From Candidatus Oleincola secundus (GTDB lineage: Bacteria; Atribacterota; Phoenicimicrobiia; Phoenicimicrobiales; Stramentimicrobiaceae), in assembly GCA_018400815.1 (NCBI GenBank), contig JAGYLS010000018.1, forward strand, positions 1 through 27,265: a stretch of 27,265 nt of DNA. The letters run 5' to 3'. The first letter of the stretch is position 1. Every line of letters begins with the position of its first letter. A model generated the notes under the pieces. It was not told the origin of the DNA. It saw only the letters and a program-made list of their open reading frames with translations, and ran no database searches. Of this stretch, positions 1 to 7,184 are shown one piece after another. The translations under genes were made by a program, and so were the position numbers.

Positions 1-2
1 GT

Positions 3-242
3 AATATAGAAAAAGCCATACTGGAATCGACGCGTGTTTCAAAAGAATATGCGATTTTCTTTGGAAGTGTTCCGATACCGGAAAGAAAATCTAATGATGC
101 TATAATAAGAGGTAAATTATTTTCGAAAGAAGAACTAAAAAATATTTTTGAAAAATTTGGCTGGGAGTTTGATTCTTTGCCAGAGATAAATGGAGCATTG
201 CTCTATTTTAAGGCAGAGAAAAGAAAACAGCAATCCAGCTAA
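3..242 (+). CDS. 3' end of a gene entering from the left; possibly a class I SAM-dependent methyltransferase C-terminus
   Basis: Open frame from position 3 to TAA 240-242: NIEKAILESTRVSKEYAIFFGSVPIPE...RGKLFSKEELKNIFEKFGWEF. This resembles the 'al.E..Rv.k.g..f...P / fs.eeL..lf...Gf' tail of methyltransferases; the SAM-binding motif would lie outside the window. Confidence 0.4.
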   Translation, partial: NIEKAILESTRVSKEYAIFFGSVPIPERKSNDAIIRGKLFSKEELKNIFEKFGWEFDSLPEINGALLYFKAEKRKQQSS

Positions 243-312
243 ACACCATATATGGATTTAACTGCAGAAGTAATAAATCAAAATATAATACAAAATGATT
301 AAGGAGTATAGC

Positions 313-765
313 ATGCTGATGGAAGAAAAAGTAAAAATAGGTATTATAATCTGTCATCGTTATCATCGTTGTGCCGGTGGTAAGTGTTTAAGGGCTATGC
401 GCAATAGGGAAGGCGCTTTTTCAATTTACCAAGACAAAGAAATAGAACTGGTCGGCTACACTACCTGTGACGGTTGTCCTGGAGGGAATATAGAATATTC
501 ACCTGAAGAGATGAAAAAAAATGGAGCCCAGATCATTCATCTTGCTACCGGGTTGATAGTCGGGTATCCTCCTTGCCCAAGAATAAAGCATTTCAAGAAA
601 TTTATAGAGCAGAAGTTTGGCTTAAAAGTAGTTATCGGAACACATCCTATCCCTCAGAATTATTATCTGGTCCATTCTAAATTGCATACCTGGGATTCTG
701 CGGGTTGGCAGAAAATTATTCAGCCTACCCTGGCTACCGAAGCTATTAGACTGGCTTATGATTGA
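313..765 (+). CDS. CGGC domain-containing protein (putative metal/Fe-S binding)
   Basis: Motifs C-x5-C-x4-C (CHRYHRCAGGKC), GAF, 'ELVGYTTCDGCPG', IHLA, PCP and terminal GTH. AAGGAG at 301-306 favours ATG 313 over ATG 295. Confidence 0.85.
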   Translation: MLMEEKVKIGIIICHRYHRCAGGKCLRAMRNREGAFSIYQDKEIELVGYTTCDGCPGGNIEYSPEEMKKNGAQIIHLATGLIVGYPPCPRIKHFKKFIEQKFGLKVVIGTHPIPQNYYLVHSKLHTWDSAGWQKIIQPTLATEAIRLAYD

Positions 766-819
766 CAGATAGGGTTTTTGCTGGATTAATAATAAATACA
801 AACTCTACTTGGATTGTGT

Positions 820-848
820 TTGACAGTGAAAATAAATAAGAGTAAAAT
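820..848 (+). promoter_or_regulatory. sigma70/sigmaA promoter for the T-box leader
   Basis: TTGACA (820-825), 17-nt spacer, TAAAAT (843-848), about 25 nt upstream of T-box stem I. Confidence 0.8.
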
Positions 849-871
849 TAAAAAAATTTGTTTCTAAATAG

Positions 872-1124
872 ATGCAAAAGAAGACAGTAAGCATGTTCTT
901 TAATATCAGAGAGCCAAGAAAAGGTGAAAATTGGCAAAAGGGATAGGCTGAAAATCACTTCTTTTATTTTTGAAGAATATAATATAAAAAAGAAAACTTA
1001 TATTTACCTAGAATGAGAGTAAGGGAAATAACCGTAATAATTATTCTCTTGCTAAATTAGGGTGGTACCACGACAACCTTCGTCCCTATTGTTAATTACT
1101 ATAGGAATGGAGGTTTTTATTTTA
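872..1124 (+). promoter_or_regulatory. T-box riboswitch (transcription antitermination), Ile specifier AUC
   Basis: Stem I base AAAAGAAG 876-883 / CTTCTTTT 958-965; AGTA 886-889; AG-bulge CAGAGA 907-912; apical stem GCCAA/TTGGC around GGTGAAA; specifier loop GAAAATCA 950-957 (ATC 954-956). Stem III at about 1018-1053. T-box AATTAGGGTGGTACCACG 1055-1072 pairs with TCGTCCCTA 1080-1088, with an overlapping terminator. Confidence 0.95.
1075..1123 (+). terminator. Intrinsic terminator of the T-box leader (mutually exclusive with the antiterminator)
   Basis: AACCTTCGTCCCTAT 1075-1089 pairs with ATAGGAATGGAGGTT 1101-1115 (one mismatch, two G-U), followed by TTTATTTT. Confidence 0.9.
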
Positions 1125-1228
1125 TCAATAAAAATTGACTGAATATCAAGGAAAGGGAGGTGAAATAACAAAAAATTTATTGAGATTCTTAAACCATTAT
1201 TAAAAACAAAAAGAAAGGTAAAGAGAAA

Positions 1229-2224
1229 ATGAGGAGATTTTTAAGTGTAATATTTGTAATTACTTTCCTGGCAGTTATTTCTTTGTCAGGATTAGCTGCT
1301 GAGGCAGCAAGAGTAGTAAAATTAACCCATGTGGTTAATGAACAGGATGCTTTTCATATATCAGCATTAAAATTTAAGGAAGTTGTGGAACAAAAGACAG
1401 ATGGTAATATTGTTGTTGAGATTCATCCCAATGCTGAATTAGGAGATGAAAGAACTTTATTGGAGGGGATGCAATTAGGAACTATTGATATGGGAGTTAT
1501 TACCAATGGTCCAATTGCTAATTTTCTACCGGAGATGGCCGTTTTCGAAATGCCATTTTTATTTGGGACTCCCGAAGAAGCTTACCATATTCTTGATGGT
1601 GAAATCGGTCAGGAAGTATTAAGCAGACTAAGTGATATTCGCATGCATGGCCTTGCATACTCAGAGCGTGGTTTCAGAAATTTAACCAATAGTGTAAGAC
1701 CTGTTAAAAAAGCAAGTGATATTGATGGGTTGAAAATTCGCTTAATGGAAAGCCCTCTATATGTTGATACTTTTAAGGCCTTAGGTGCAAATGCTGTTCC
1801 CATGGCCTGGACAGAATGTCTTACCGGACTTTCCCAGGGTACTATTGATGGTCAGGAAAATCCGATTGTCGTTGTGTATTCTTTTAAATTATTTGAATCC
1901 CAGGATTATATGACACTAGATCGACACACTTATGCTCCTGCCACTATTATGCTTAGTGATAAATTATGGCAGTCACTGACACCTGAAGAACAGTCTGTTT
2001 TTAAGGAAGCAGCTAAACTAGGTGGACAGGCAGCCAGGGATTATAATAATGATAACGAAGCTGAACAGTTACAATTTATCAAGGATCAGGGTATGGTTGT
2101 AGAAGAAAATCCGGAGCTTGATACTTTCAGGGATGCTGTAAAGCCTGTTTACGAGAAATACGGGCCCCAATTTGGTGGTCTTTTAGAGGATATTCAAGAA
2201 GCCTTGGCAGAATTTCGTAGTTAA
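1229..2224 (+). CDS. dctP: TRAP transporter substrate-binding protein, DctP family
   Basis: Signal peptide; LGDERTLLEGMQLGTID, GFRN, GLKIR (carboxylate-binding Arg), LGANAVPMAW and IDGQENP motifs; followed by small and large permease genes. Confidence 0.95.
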   Translation: MRRFLSVIFVITFLAVISLSGLAAEAARVVKLTHVVNEQDAFHISALKFKEVVEQKTDGNIVVEIHPNAELGDERTLLEGMQLGTIDMGVITNGPIANFLPEMAVFEMPFLFGTPEEAYHILDGEIGQEVLSRLSDIRMHGLAYSERGFRNLTNSVRPVKKASDIDGLKIRLMESPLYVDTFKALGANAVPMAWTECLTGLSQGTIDGQENPIVVVYSFKLFESQDYMTLDRHTYAPATIMLSDKLWQSLTPEEQSVFKEAAKLGGQAARDYNNDNEAEQLQFIKDQGMVVEENPELDTFRDAVKPVYEKYGPQFGGLLEDIQEALAEFRS

Positions 2225-2247
2225 TTTATGTTTTTTATTGTTAAAGT

Positions 2248-2290
2248 GATAGTCTTGCAGTCTTAACTGAATTCATGCTGCAAGACTATC
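2248..2290 (+). other. Intercistronic hairpin after dctP (likely mRNA stabiliser or partial attenuator)
   Basis: Perfect 13-bp inverted repeat GATAGTCTTGCAG 2248-2260 / CTGCAAGACTATC 2278-2290, 17-nt loop, no adjacent U-tract on the + strand. Confidence 0.7.
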
Positions 2291-2313
2291 GAATGTTTAT
2301 ATAAGGATTTAAA

Positions 2314-2814
2314 ATGGGAAAAGTTTATTTTCAATTTAAAAGAATAAGTGAAGGTTTAAATGACTTTATTAAAGCCTTAACTGGCATTATGTTAATAATT
2401 ATGACTATTGTAGTTACTATTCAAATTATTTTCAGAATTTTTTTTAGTGCTCTCTCTTATACTGAAGAAATGTCTAGATATTTATTAGTGTGGAGTAGTT
2501 TATTCGCTGCTAGTGTGGCATACAAACAAGGGTCACATATTGCAGTTACTTTTTTGGTTGAGCAATTTAAGGGAAAATTAAGGACAATAATGGCGATTAT
2601 CATAAACTTACTATCTATAATATTTTTTATTATTGCAATACATTATGGATCACAGCTGATTAGTATGCAAGTATTCCAAACCTCTCCGGCTCTCTTGATC
2701 CCAATGCGCTATGTTTATTTGTGCATACCCATAAGCTTTTCAGTCATGCTTTTCCATGGCCTGGTAATGCTTTGGGGAGAGTCAATTCAGTTATTAAAGG
2801 GAGTAAAATTATGA
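2314..2814 (+). CDS. dctQ: TRAP transporter small permease DctQ
   Basis: 166 aa, four hydrophobic segments, QIIFR...TEEMSRYLLVW, HIAV and SPAL.IPM motifs. Confidence 0.93.
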   Translation: MGKVYFQFKRISEGLNDFIKALTGIMLIIMTIVVTIQIIFRIFFSALSYTEEMSRYLLVWSSLFAASVAYKQGSHIAVTFLVEQFKGKLRTIMAIIINLLSIIFFIIAIHYGSQLISMQVFQTSPALLIPMRYVYLCIPISFSVMLFHGLVMLWGESIQLLKGVKL

Positions 2815-4073
2815 TTGCAATTTTATTATTTTTTTCATTTATTTTTCTTATATTAATGGGTATACCTGTAGCTATTTCGGTTGGACTATCCTCAATTATA
2901 GTTTTGGCGATTGGGGATGTATCTTTAGTACTTTTTCCTCAAAGGCTTTTCGCAGGAATTGACTCATTTCCTTTAATTGCAGTACCCTTTTTCATCTTAG
3001 CAGGTGATTTAATGGCTGAGGGCAAAATGTCAAAATTAATTGTCAATTTTGCGGAAACTATTTTTGGATTTATGCGTGGTGGCTTATGGATTATCAGTGT
3101 TATGGCTTCTGCTTTTTTTGCAGCTATCTCCGGTTCCGGTGGTGCTACAACTGCAGCTATTGGTACACCCTTGATCCCTGAATTAAAAAGTCGCAATTAT
3201 GACCCTGAATTTTCAGCAGCGCTTATTGCCTGTTCCGGTGGCATTGGAGTAGTCATTCCGCCTTCAGTCCCCATGGTGCTTTATGCATTAATCGCCAATG
3301 AATCAATTGCGAGATTATTTCTAAATGGTTTTATTCCCGGGATGATGATGGCTGCAGCTCTTATTTTTATGGCTTTACGTAAAGCTAATAAAGAAAATTA
3401 CCCTAGAGGGAACAAGGTTGCTATGAATCAAATAATCTCTAGTTTTAAATCTTCAATTTGGGGACTGATGACACCCATTATTATTTTGGGGGGCATATTT
3501 TCCGGGTACTTTACACCATCCGAGGCAGCTGTTATCGCAGTAGATTGGGCATTGTTTGTTTCTCTCTTTATTTATCGTGATAAAAATTTAAAGGATATTT
3601 TTAGAATATTTACAAAGTCAGTTACTACCTCTTCTTTAATTATGTTATTAATTGGTACAGCCCAGGTTTTTAGCTGGGTTTTAGCCAATTGGAATATTCC
3701 TGTTATGATTACAACTGCGATATTGTCTATATCTGATAATAGATATATCATATTGTTATTTGTAAATATTATTCTTTTGATTGCCGGAGTATTTATGGAA
3801 ACAGCATCAATTGTTATTATATTAACACCTATATTTTTAGGATTGATGACTCAAATTGGAGTTGACCCTATTCATTTTGGCATTATTATGACCATTGCCT
3901 TAGCCATTGGTATGTCAACACCACCGGTTGCCATTAATTTATATATAGCGAGCAGTATTTCCGGCTATTCGATTGAAAAAATTAGCCGGCAAGCTTTACC
4001 ACTAATATTGATACTGATTATGGTTTTATTGCTTGTTACCTATTTGCCATTATTTATTCCGTTAATATTTTAG
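2811..4073 (+). CDS. dctM: TRAP transporter large permease DctM
   Basis: DSFPLIAVPFFILAG, FFAAISGS, GVVIPPSVPM, GYFTPSEAA, GVDPIHFG and TPPV motifs. The likely start ATG 2811 overlaps the dctQ TGA (ATGA), with SD AGGGAG upstream; the ORF-track start at 2721 is an artefact. Confidence 0.95.
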   Translation: MIAILLFFSFIFLILMGIPVAISVGLSSIIVLAIGDVSLVLFPQRLFAGIDSFPLIAVPFFILAGDLMAEGKMSKLIVNFAETIFGFMRGGLWIISVMASAFFAAISGSGGATTAAIGTPLIPELKSRNYDPEFSAALIACSGGIGVVIPPSVPMVLYALIANESIARLFLNGFIPGMMMAAALIFMALRKANKENYPRGNKVAMNQIISSFKSSIWGLMTPIIILGGIFSGYFTPSEAAVIAVDWALFVSLFIYRDKNLKDIFRIFTKSVTTSSLIMLLIGTAQVFSWVLANWNIPVMITTAILSISDNRYIILLFVNIILLIAGVFMETASIVIILTPIFLGLMTQIGVDPIHFGIIMTIALAIGMSTPPVAINLYIASSISGYSIEKISRQALPLILILIMVLLLVTYLPLFIPLIF

Positions 4074-4185
4074 AAAAATTTAAATGATGATAGTAGATGA
4101 TTAAAAGATTAATAAGGGTAAAATAGTTTATAAAAAGCTGAACTGATTAGATTAATATAAAATATAATAAAGGAAGGATAAAAAT

Positions 4186-5859
4186 ATGGAAAAGAACAGT
4201 AATATTGTAATGAAAGGAGCAAATCGTGCTCCTCATCGTTCTTTGTTTTATGCTATGGGATATACAAAGGAAGATTTAGAAAAACCCAATATTGGTGTGG
4301 TTAATGCTTTTAATGAGATTATTCCCGGGCATATTCAACTTAATGATATTGCGCAGGCAGTAAAAATTGGCGTTTCTGCAGCCGGGGGGATACCTATGGA
4401 ATTTCCTGCTATCGGTATTTGTGATGGCATTGCTATGAACCACCAGGGAATGAAATATCCATTGGCTAGCAGAGAACTTATTGCTGACTCTATTGAGGCA
4501 GTTGCAATGGCCCATCGTTTTGATGGTTTGGTGCTGGTAGCAAATTGTGACAAAATTGTTCCGGGAATGTTAATGGCTGCCGGTCGTTTGAATATTCCGG
4601 CAATTTATGTTAGTGGCGGACCTATGCTTGCAGGACAACATGCCGGGCAGGATGTTGATTTGTCTACTATGTTTGAAGCTGTAGGAAAATATAATCAGAA
4701 AAAGATGAGTGAAGAGGAATTGACTGAATTAGAAAACTGTGCCTGCCCTACAGCCGGTAGCTGTTCCGGTTTGTTTACAGCAAATTCCATGAACTGTCTA
4801 TCTGAGGCCTTAGGTATGGCCTTGCCCGGTAATGGTACAATCCCCATAGGATATGGTGCCAGGAAACAATTAGCCAACCAGGCAGGGAAAGCGATTATGA
4901 ATCTTGTCAAAAAACAGATTAAACCCAGAGATATTATGACCGCTAATGCTTTTGAAAATGCTATTGCTCTTGACTTGGCTATGGCCGGCTCAACAAATAC
5001 AGTATTACATTTATTGGCCATTGCTCATGAAGCAGGAATTAACCTGGAATTAAAAACATTTGACAAGTTAAGTCGTATTGTTCCGATTTTAACGAAAATA
5101 TCACCTTCCAGTTCTTTACATGTTACTGATTTATATTTTGCAGGAGGTATTCAGGCAATCTTAAAGGAATTAGCAGAGGCAAAACTTATTCATACTGATG
5201 AAATGACTGTTAGTGGTCGAAACATGGGTCAGAATATTGCATCAGCTAAAATAAAAAATAGTGAAGTTATCAAGAAAAATAATGATCCATACAGCAAGGA
5301 AAGTGGTATTGCAGTATTATATGGTAACCTGGCTCCGGAAGGTGGAGTTGTTAAGGTATCTGCGGTCAGTAAAAAAATGTATGCCTTTGAAGGACCGGCA
5401 AGAGTATTTAACTCTGAAGAAGAAGCATACCAGGCAATAATGGATGGAGAAATTAAAAAAGGTGATGTTGTAGTAATCAGGTATGAAGGACCAAAGGGTG
5501 GTCCGGGAATGCGTGAAATGCTGGCACCTACTTCAGCCCTCTGTGGTATGGAATTGGATAATGATGTTGCTCTTCTTACTGATGGACGTTTTTCAGGGGC
5601 AACAAGGGGTGCAGCAATTGGACATGTTTCACCAGAGGCAGCGGAAAAGGGACCTATTGGGATGATTGAAGATGGGGATATGATTAAGATTGATATTTCC
5701 AATAGGGAATTGTCAGTAAAACTCACCGAAGAAGAATTAAAAAAACGTGAATCACAATGGTCTTTACCGGAAAGAAATATTCCTTCAAATTATTACTTAA
5801 GACGATATGCTTATCTAGTCACTTCTGCTAGTACCGGTGCTGTTTTTAGAGAAGTATAA
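4186..5859 (+). CDS. ilvD: Dihydroxy-acid dehydratase
   Basis: [85 protein letters not shown] and TDGRFSG...IGHVSPEAA are IlvD-clade signatures. Confidence 0.95.
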
Positions 5860-5867
5860 TTATAAGA

Positions 5868-5907
5868 TTAGTATATTCAAGGGGAATTTTCTCCTTGAAT
5901 ATACTAA
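5868..5907 (+). terminator. Long hairpin immediately after ilvD (probable 3' end of the operon)
   Basis: TTAGTATATTCAAGGGGA 5868-5885 / TCTCCTTGAATATACTAA 5890-5907 (18 bp, one G-U); no classical U-tract. Confidence 0.6.
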
Positions 5908-6025
5908 GAACAGTTAATACCAGGATTGTTACTCTTTGGGATAGAAAAAAAGATAAAAGGATAGTAAAGTAATTAGCTAATATAATATCATAAATTGAAA
6001 ATTTATTTCAGTATTAAAGGGGATC

Positions 6026-6051
6026 TCAAGGGGAATTTTCCCCTTGAATAT
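6026..6051. repeat. Second copy of the palindromic element TCAAGGGGAATTTTCYCCTTGAATAT
   Basis: 25/26 identical to 5877-5902; lies just past the stop codon of the convergent minus-strand gene. Confidence 0.8.
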
Positions 6052-6054
6052 CTC

Positions 6055-6879
6055 TCAAATATAAATTTCCGGTTCTTTTCTTTTTTTACCCAGTTGTTTC
6101 AGTGCAGTTTTGACAAGGACCGGTTTTTTATATATTATTTTTCGAGCATTGTTAGGACAAAGTTTTACACAGGCGAAACAACGAATACAAAGTTTGTCGC
6201 GACTTTTAAGAGTCTCCGGGTCAATGGCATTAACCGGGCAAAGTTCAAGACATTTTTTACACTTTTTACAGAGATTCGGATCGATAATCGGAGAATGAGC
6301 AAATGCCAATTCACTATGTCGGGGTAGCAATTTGCCCATGGCACGTAATTCACCTTTAATATTAAGTTCCGGGAGGTTTTCTATTTTTTCTATATTTTTA
6401 ATTTTTCGAGAGATTTGTATACCTAGAAGTTCGGCTTTTTCCATATCCTTACTATCTGGCCTTCCAGAGGCTATTTTAATTTCTTCATGAGAAAAAGAAT
6501 GTTCGCCAATAAAAGAAGCTGCGGCAATTATTTTAAATCCTTGATTTCTCATCATCTTATTTAATTGTTTCAGAGCAATTCCGGCACTGACATTTCCATA
6601 AGTAACCACTAGAATCATTGGATGTCCGCCACCTCTGACCTTAGTAAGAACCGGGTATAATAAGTCTGGTATTCTTTCTTCATAGACTGGTATTCCCAGA
6701 ATTATAGCTTCATCGGGTTGAATATTGAATTTAAAATTATGACGTTCAGTTAGAGTGCTAATATTTATAGTTCTTTGTTCGGGTACTCCCCAACTTTTTG
6801 CGATAGTATAGACGATTTTTTCAGTGGAATGTGTCGGAGAAAAGTACATATTTACCAATCTATCAATAATCAATTGCAT
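6055..6879 (-). CDS. EFR1-family flavodoxin-ferredoxin fusion (N-terminal flavodoxin-like, C-terminal 2x[4Fe-4S])
   Basis: YFSPTHST, GIPVY, VVTYGN, AAASFIGEHSF and GRPD motifs; two CxxCxxCxxxCP motifs (CKKCKKCLELCP, CIRCFACVKLCP). Confidence 0.88.
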   Translation of the reverse strand: MQLIIDRLVNMYFSPTHSTEKIVYTIAKSWGVPEQRTINISTLTERHNFKFNIQPDEAIILGIPVYEERIPDLLYPVLTKVRGGGHPMILVVTYGNVSAGIALKQLNKMMRNQGFKIIAAASFIGEHSFSHEEIKIASGRPDSKDMEKAELLGIQISRKIKNIEKIENLPELNIKGELRAMGKLLPRHSELAFAHSPIIDPNLCKKCKKCLELCPVNAIDPETLKSRDKLCIRCFACVKLCPNNARKIIYKKPVLVKTALKQLGKKRKEPEIYI

Positions 6880-7184
6880 GCTCCTTTTAAATTTATAATA
6901 AGCCTAATATAATAAAAAAGAATAGGCACCCTGAAACCTCACTTTTTATATTTTAATGCAGCCCACAATTTTAGACAAGAGAAATATTAAAATATTATAA
7001 AAACATTTTCTTAATTCAACCATTCGGAAAAATAATTGGAAAATTTCTTCAAAATTATTGTTATAGCTTAACAGCATAATTTTTGTTACAATTAATTCAG
7101 GGGAAAAAATATAAATGCAAGCCAGCAAGAAGAAAAAAATATCTTAAATATTTAATAGGGAAAAATAGATAAAAGGAGTTAGCC

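Follow-up and report, generated by a model that had tools for sequence, protein, structure and literature searches.

An isoleucine T-box precedes a TRAP transporter-ilvD unit in Atribacterota, a candidate import system for branched-chain amino-acid precursors

Candidatus Oleincola secundus (Atribacterota) carries a gene unit in which an isoleucine (Ile) T-box leader precedes the three genes of a tripartite ATP-independent periplasmic (TRAP) transporter, dctP, dctQ and dctM, and the dihydroxy-acid dehydratase gene ilvD. The unit lies in a stretch of 27,265 nucleotides (contig JAGYLS010000018.1 of assembly GCA_018400815.1; hereafter the window), which is contig C90 of the host genome G000, an assembly of 2.0 Mb and 86% completeness whose close relatives carry the label Atribacterota. 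The solute-binding protein DctP probably binds 2,3-dihydroxy-3-methylvalerate and 2,3-dihydroxyisovalerate. Across many unrelated bacteria, relatives of this importer lie next to genes for the same step of the pathway, and its cargo is therefore most likely a half-made branched-chain precursor. The unit is arranged as follows.

820..848, + strand: predicted sigma70-type promoter, -35 and -10 elements with a 17-nt spacer (11 of 12 consensus matches)
872..1090, + strand: T-box leader, transcriptional, class I (RF00230, 86.1 bits, E 2.1e-19)
954..956, + strand: specifier codon AUC (Ile), from the covariance alignment
1059..1088, + strand: antiterminator with the UGGU bulge at 1063-1066, from folding and homologue alignment
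1076..1125, + strand: T-box terminator hairpin and U tract (-15.6 kcal/mol)
1229..2224, + strand: dctP, TRAP solute-binding protein, 331 aa (TIGR00787, 234.7 against a cut-off of 175)
2247..2291, + strand: conserved intercistronic hairpin of 15 bp between dctP and dctQ, from folding
2314..2814, + strand: dctQ, small membrane subunit (PF04290)
2811..4073, + strand: dctM, large membrane subunit, whose ATG at 2811 overlaps the dctQ stop (TIGR00786, 410 against 268)
4186..5859, + strand: ilvD, dihydroxy-acid dehydratase (TIGR00110, 801.5 against 618.15)
5868..5907, + strand: closing hairpin of 18 bp between ilvD and a convergent EFR1 ferredoxin gene (z -8.0)

The leader matches RF00230 over the full model (1-219). 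Its score lies under the gathering score of 93, so the T-box is missed by a standard Rfam scan, which at that threshold returned no match in the window. The covariance scan suggested by the first-pass annotation of this DNA thus gave a full-length, significant match that stays below the family threshold. G000 contains 16 RF00230 matches, and 13 of them, the ileS T-box included, fall below the gathering score. The structural hallmarks of a T-box are all present, namely stem I with its specifier loop, a UGGN antiterminator and an overlapping terminator. The terminator hairpin (1076-1114) overlaps and competes with the antiterminator. Antiterminator pairs are retained in 8 of 8 aligned rows, and 90.6% of terminator cells are paired across these rows. 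Covariation gives a modest signal on two measures (14 and 16 of 500 shuffles) and none on the remaining ones. The Ile assignment made in the earlier annotation is borne out within the genome itself, where the ileS T-box reads AUC and the leuS T-box reads CUC; the specifier also fits the ilvD gene downstream. ARAGORN found no tRNA-Ile gene in the 86% complete assembly, and a short-pattern search in five relatives returned no more than control level. An A discriminator in the cognate tRNA-Ile would fit the UGGU bulge. A covariance scan of the window for ykkC-type RNA gave no match.

All three transporter profiles score above their cut-offs within one unit, which identifies a DctP-type TRAP system and agrees with the earlier description of the locus. 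The same holds for the gene order on one strand, for the closing hairpin and for the absence of ilvB, ilvN, ilvC and ilvE from the unit. The promoter named there also stands: its near-consensus hexamers are the joint best within positions 1-7000, and similar hexamers are found at the equivalent place in relatives. Sites resembling -35 and -10 elements occur in the region at chance level overall (28 found, 28.2 expected). The statement that the unit has no clear internal terminator requires a caveat, because the hairpin at 2247-2291 after dctP had been overlooked. This hairpin is retained in all six homologues folded (z -3.8 to -9.2) and probably stabilises the dctP message or acts as a partial terminator or read-through attenuator. 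A separate ilvD promoter had been considered for the dctM-ilvD spacer (4074-4185). The hexamer scan found none starting there on the + strand; conservation of the spacer is weak and its length varies among seven rows, so a weak AT-rich internal promoter could still exist. Nine metatranscriptome runs were screened, each of which contained only 0.06-0.11 of the window's words. RNA contigs from four runs cover parts of the leader, dctP and ilvD; contigs cannot prove a transcript and were not used as evidence.

Within the Atribacterota, this DctP is found at 11 loci in 10 genomes at an identity of at least 74%, and the next matches reach 45% at most. A T-box directly precedes dctP in all seven family-level copies (AUC in six, CUC in G007), and ilvD follows dctM in six of them; in the remaining one (G003) the contig ends inside dctP. 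The synteny of T-box, dctPQM and ilvD that the first-pass annotation had proposed to look for is therefore conserved. The T-box of G007 (L067:3221-3421) carries a stem I resembling that of the leu-operon T-box, and its CUC specifier is, judging by this resemblance, a swap of the whole leader and not a point change. Where family members lack this TRAP, ilvD closes a leucine (Leu) T-box leu operon (G008, G009, G014), and a covariance scan of about 1.4 kb upstream found no T-box before ilvD in any of six such loci. The T-box thus travels with the TRAP. G006 carries the TRAP-ilvD cassette inserted in the tail of its Leu-T-box leu operon. In a sister family the order is reversed: G043 has T-box-ilvD-dctPQM, joined over a contig overlap of 55 nt, and L136 has ilvD-dctPQM-T-box. 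G030 is arranged like L136, as pieced from contig ends, and continues into ilvBNC; its second dctP copy follows an ilvC end.

The association extends well beyond the phylum. The comparison set of 104 loci comprised the 80 best of 426 metagenome matches together with 10 genome loci, 11 loci from relatives and 3 from plasmids. With one short row left out, it forms 33 clusters at 90% identity, 28 of which are informative, having enough flank or a link. True ilvD or ilvC abuts the transporter in 18 of the 28, in several gene orders and phyla, so the linkage of homologous dctPQM genes to ilv genes on which the earlier proposal had been staked is present. All 14 ilvD neighbours tested exceed the TIGR00110 cut-off, one of them from the other (PRK12448) IlvD clade, and all three ilvC neighbours tested exceed that of TIGR00465. 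Linked loci include Thermovirga lienii (GntR, dctPQM, ilvD), the Bacillota locus L189, where an AUC T-box is followed by ilvD-dctPQM, and loci labelled Caldisericum (a cluster) and Peptococcaceae. GntR-controlled units without a T-box still pair the TRAP with ilvD (L159, L174, L162). In L137 (515-9583) and L142 (712-9735) a sigma54 activator, E1alpha, E1beta, E2 and ilvC lead into dctPQM in one run, and L162 combines ilvC, GntR, dctPQM, ilvD and E1alpha-like genes. These three runs possibly encode a catabolic route with IlvC working backwards and acetolactate cleavage. In other bacteria the same importer subfamily appears, from its gene neighbourhoods, to be wired for catabolism of the proposed dihydroxy acids, either as GntR-dctPQM-ilvD or with acetoin-dehydrogenase-like genes and ilvC. 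A quick tree places the DctP subfamily in a clade (Shimodaira-Hasegawa-like approximate likelihood ratio test, SH-aLRT, 95) with the ilvD/ilvC link on most branches. The link is absent from L093, L149 and a derived Halomonas/Rhodobacteraceae-type group (SH-aLRT 98). A sample of 401 Spirochaetota genomes yielded one match, so this phylum gave no test.

The AlphaFold model of DctP (pLDDT, the predicted local distance difference test score, 94) has as its top six structural matches 4XEQ, 4PDD, 4NQ8, 4PDH, 4PAK and 4P9K, with Z of 41.4-43.3, a root-mean-square deviation of 1.2-1.5 and an identity of 34-38%; the same six entries lead by sequence. Each of them presumably contains pantoate or erythronate. 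These are small 2-hydroxy acids, close in size and shape to 2,3-dihydroxyisovalerate. Closed structures of this group are described as containing pantoate or erythronate, mostly co-purified, and five binding residues are named for them (PMC11668362). The five carboxylate- and hydroxyl-binding residues map to E74, R150, R171, W194 and N211 of DctP, and all 55 of 55 rows keep them unchanged. R150, R171 and N211, mapped via the numbering of 4P47, form the Arg/Arg/Asn carboxylate site of TRAP proteins. The product of IlvC is the substrate of IlvD, and the branched 2,3-dihydroxy acids are therefore the one compound class common to both genomic contexts.

The ilvD gene of the window is the sole PF00920 (IlvD/Edd) match in G000, and the arabinonate, xylonate and edd models score far below their cut-offs on its product; it is therefore the housekeeping dihydroxy-acid dehydratase. 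The first-pass annotation had proposed checking whether the host genome lacks ilvBN or ilvC. A reading in which the cell relies on import for want of the earlier pathway steps is not supported. A Leu (CUC) T-box operon of G000 contains ilvB, ilvN, leuA, leuC and leuD as well as a CimA-like gene, which at 652 bits stays below its cut-off, and ilvE is present outside the unit. The 86% complete assembly yielded neither ilvC nor leuB, the latter of which flanks this region in G006. Of the 61 genomes searched, 48 have ilvC above the cut-off, and among the 10 carriers of this DctP seven have a full ilvC and two have fragments at contig edges. In G001, of the same genus, an ilvC fragment shares its contig with unrelated genes, and the end of contig C164 of G000 corresponds to the far end of this ilvC block, with the intervening orthologues missing from G000. 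That ilvC is missing along with the unrelated genes next to it, where a contig ends, fits an assembly gap. We therefore rejected auxotrophy as an explanation, and the host is, on its predicted gene content, not an auxotroph for branched-chain amino acids. An obligate cross-feeding system was rejected as well, as ilvBN is present and most carriers retain ilvC.

We propose the following route. On Ile shortage, uncharged tRNA-Ile would pair with the AUC specifier and the UGGU bulge and stabilise the antiterminator; antitermination of T-boxes by uncharged tRNA is an established mechanism (PMC7778990). Transcription would then read through into dctPQM-ilvD, presumably as one unit. The TRAP transporter would import 2,3-dihydroxy-3-methylvalerate, on the Ile route, and 2,3-dihydroxyisovalerate, on the route to valine (Val) and Leu. 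The co-regulated housekeeping IlvD would dehydrate the imported acids to 2-oxo acids, and IlvE, encoded elsewhere in the genome, would aminate these. Carboxylate uptake is established for TRAP systems as a family, and the dehydration reaction for IlvD. Such import would spare the citramalate, IlvBN and IlvC steps, or recapture intermediates leaked by the cell or its neighbours. Since the host probably makes the intermediates itself, the importer would be an energy-saving supplement or recapture route, not a means of obligate cross-feeding. Import of dihydroxy acids, put forward in the first-pass annotation, is supported as the likeliest function, in a host that probably does not depend on it.

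Other cargoes have to be weighed against the dihydroxy acids. The ligand could lie one step earlier, at the IlvC substrates 2-acetolactate and 2-aceto-2-hydroxybutyrate, which would then feed IlvC and IlvD or an acetoin-dehydrogenase-like cleavage. This would suit the contexts of L137, L142 and L162, and 2-acetolactate is listed as a TRAP ligand (PMC5812351). We consider it unlikely, because ilvD alone is far commoner as a neighbour and reverse IlvC acting on a dihydroxy acid accounts equally for the ilvC contexts. Moreover, 4OAN, which we take to be the acetolactate-binding structure, is only 22% identical and ranks 24th by structure. An Ile T-box would suit any Ile precursor, and the transporter might import branched 2-oxo or 2-hydroxy acids from amino-acid fermenters, for which ilvE is at hand, with ilvD co-regulated merely through the shared Ile-starvation response. 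Such acids are common fermentation products. That they are the cargo is nonetheless improbable, as the subfamily abuts ilvD and not ilvE, even in the GntR units without a T-box (L159, L174, L162), and its nearest structures belong to the hydroxy-acid group, not to the keto-acid TakP type.

The best sequence and structure matches would favour pantoate, erythronate or another small sugar acid, with IlvD serving as a broad dehydratase, and pairs of a TRAP with an IlvD/Edd sugar-acid dehydratase do occur (e.g. G015:C2). Here such a function is very unlikely. A search for panC in 61 genomes found it in only one, which is not a carrier of this DctP, so that pantoate would be without evident anabolic use in this lineage, and G000 yielded no panB. 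The genes beside the transporter encode true IlvD equivalogs, an Ile or Leu T-box would not fit a sugar acid, and the ligands of the solved relatives were mostly co-purified. An unrelated TRAP could also have landed by chance between T-box and ilvD and be hitch-hiking on ilvD regulation. The Atribacterota have many TRAP systems, and in three genomes (G015, G018, G019) another TRAP, with a DctP of 22-23% identity, stands in the same operon two genes before ilvD, within a separate PrpR/lyase block. TRAP genes therefore enter this operon for other reasons too. A chance insertion is nevertheless already hard to hold and seems to us highly improbable, given that the same subfamily abuts ilvD or ilvC both upstream and downstream in several phyla and that no T-box was found before ilvD in the six scanned loci where the TRAP is absent.

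Several points weigh against dihydroxy-acid import, which we still regard as probable. The unrelated TRAP near ilvD is one of them. The putative ligand is assigned from gene context and structural similarity; the solved relatives are only 34-39% identical to DctP, and their N-terminal pocket loop is different. Close DctP copies in G025, L132 and L134 have neither ilvD nor a T-box just upstream. Of the 28 informative clusters, 10 (Halomonas/Rhodobacteraceae-type, spirochaete, L149) have varied neighbours and no ilv gene among them, and in three linked loci the score was assigned manually, on gene ends at contig edges. The control speaks for the link, since among 139 other listed Atribacterota DctPs only 2 have an ilvD or ilvC match within 6 kb and none abuts one, but short contigs bias this figure low. 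No listed RNA contig from the four metatranscriptome runs compared spans dctM and ilvD. A prototroph needs import less. The excretion evidence considered, extracellular accumulation of the dihydroxy acid, concerns engineered yeast (PMC5678825), and a natural anoxic source of these acids is supposed.

Each part of the unit is of a known kind; the combination and the putative cargo appear new. In T-box-controlled amino-acid transporters, a tRNA-sensing leader likewise precedes transport genes, the specifier has been used for substrate inference, and T-boxes were acquired by single transporters in single lineages (Wels 2008, PMC2494555). The seven families named there (MFS, APC, NSS, DAACS, LIVCS, NhaC and ABC) do not include TRAP, whereas the unit described here encodes a carboxylate TRAP whose proposed cargo is a pathway intermediate rather than an amino acid. 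The pantoate/D-erythronate TRAP proteins (4NQ8, 4PDD, 4PAK/4P9K, 4PDH, 4XEQ) share the fold and the conserved binding residues with DctP, which in contrast belongs to a separate subfamily with another N-terminal pocket loop and ilvD/ilvC linkage, in a lineage that nearly lacks panC. T-box ilv/leu operons, some of them in tandem with guanosine tetraphosphate (ppGpp) riboswitches, also place ilvD under Ile or Leu T-box control (PMC6003355). The unit in the window differs in having no ykkC-type RNA and no ilvB, ilvN or ilvC, and in carrying a three-gene importer before ilvD. TRAP proteins that bind 2-acetolactate or indole acids, which fall into different clusters, are a precedent for the binding of pathway intermediates (PMC5812351). 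The text of this TRAP review gives acetolactate, indole acids and pantoate/erythronate as ligands, with neither dihydroxyisovalerate nor a T-box. The T-box data of Sun 2013, as far as searched, hold no TRAP transporter entry. A table of a 2025 riboswitch survey sets 24 against 9413 COG1638 genes; the former are apparently those with a riboswitch, of unspecified type. The first-pass annotation named no characterised system of this kind; no T-box-controlled TRAP was found in the literature searched, and no paper there brings together T-box, TRAP and ilvD; a database entry may exist.

A few further observations concern the same genomes. The 16 RF00230 matches of G000, a non-Bacillota genome, stand before synthetases and several biosynthetic and transport operons, and only three of them reach the gathering score. 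A second T-box-controlled TRAP system lies at G000:C24 ~25100-28790 (L020, L224); its T-box has a UGG (Trp) specifier and is joined by a second antiterminator. Behind this leader lie genes for a TAXI solute-binding protein, a fused permease and a molybdopterin oxidoreductase. The same double leader precedes the TAXI gene in all seven genomes with a match (seven of eight loci), and a similar leader stands before a TrpB-like gene on G000:C132; a tryptophan precursor is the candidate cargo of this TAXI-TRAP. RNAs of the ykkC type (RF00442, below gathering score) occur at L019:2633-2754, L072:2719-2834 and L136:6810-6927, in tandem behind T-boxes before ilvB, as for ppGpp riboswitches (PMC6003355). 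A ykkC look-alike precedes ilvD-dctPQM in L136 and G030 and is absent from the covariance scan output for L136. L068, L132 and L134 share a near-identical AT-rich region upstream of dctP, with neither T-box nor ilvD. In L212:1979-10990 (G015), and also in G018, G019 and G000:C130, the leu operon contains a PrpR-like activator, a methylisocitrate-lyase-family gene and leuCD. In G015, G018 and G019 a leuB-like gene and the unrelated TRAP follow leuCD, just before ilvD. From its gene content, this block may encode a branched dicarboxylate pathway. In the window, the stretch that separates ilvD from the convergent EFR1 ferredoxin gene holds two related palindromes in facing orientation, at 5868-5907 and ~6027-6051.

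Taken together, our analysis proposes a substrate, open to direct testing, for a TRAP subfamily of several phyla that had no annotation and for which Thermovirga lienii is a cultured and fully sequenced carrier. If the assignment is true, TRAP would join the transporter families under T-box control, and a T-box specifier could point to a pathway intermediate and not to the amino acid itself. A 2,3-dihydroxyisovalerate importer might also be of use in isobutanol or valine strains, which are reported to lose the intermediate to the medium (PMC5678825). More tentatively, and with rather less than even confidence, the DctP subfamily could be a widespread, hitherto undescribed dedicated importer of branched 2,3-dihydroxy acids that form a traded pool in anoxic communities. 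In that case, the Atribacterota and a member of the Bacillota would salvage them for Ile, Val and Leu under T-box or ppGpp-type RNA control, and Thermovirga, Caldisericum-like bacteria and Peptococcaceae would burn them via IlvD or reversed IlvC with an acetoin-dehydrogenase-like complex. Pantoate, where it co-purified with the solved relatives, might then stand in for a similar ligand, and, with the Trp-T-box TAXI-TRAP of G000 counted in, the Atribacterota would use T-box-controlled TRAPs generally for scavenging amino-acid precursors. If the dihydroxy acids are indeed imported, this would point to branched-chain intermediates being exchanged between energy-limited anaerobes, the Atribacterota among them.

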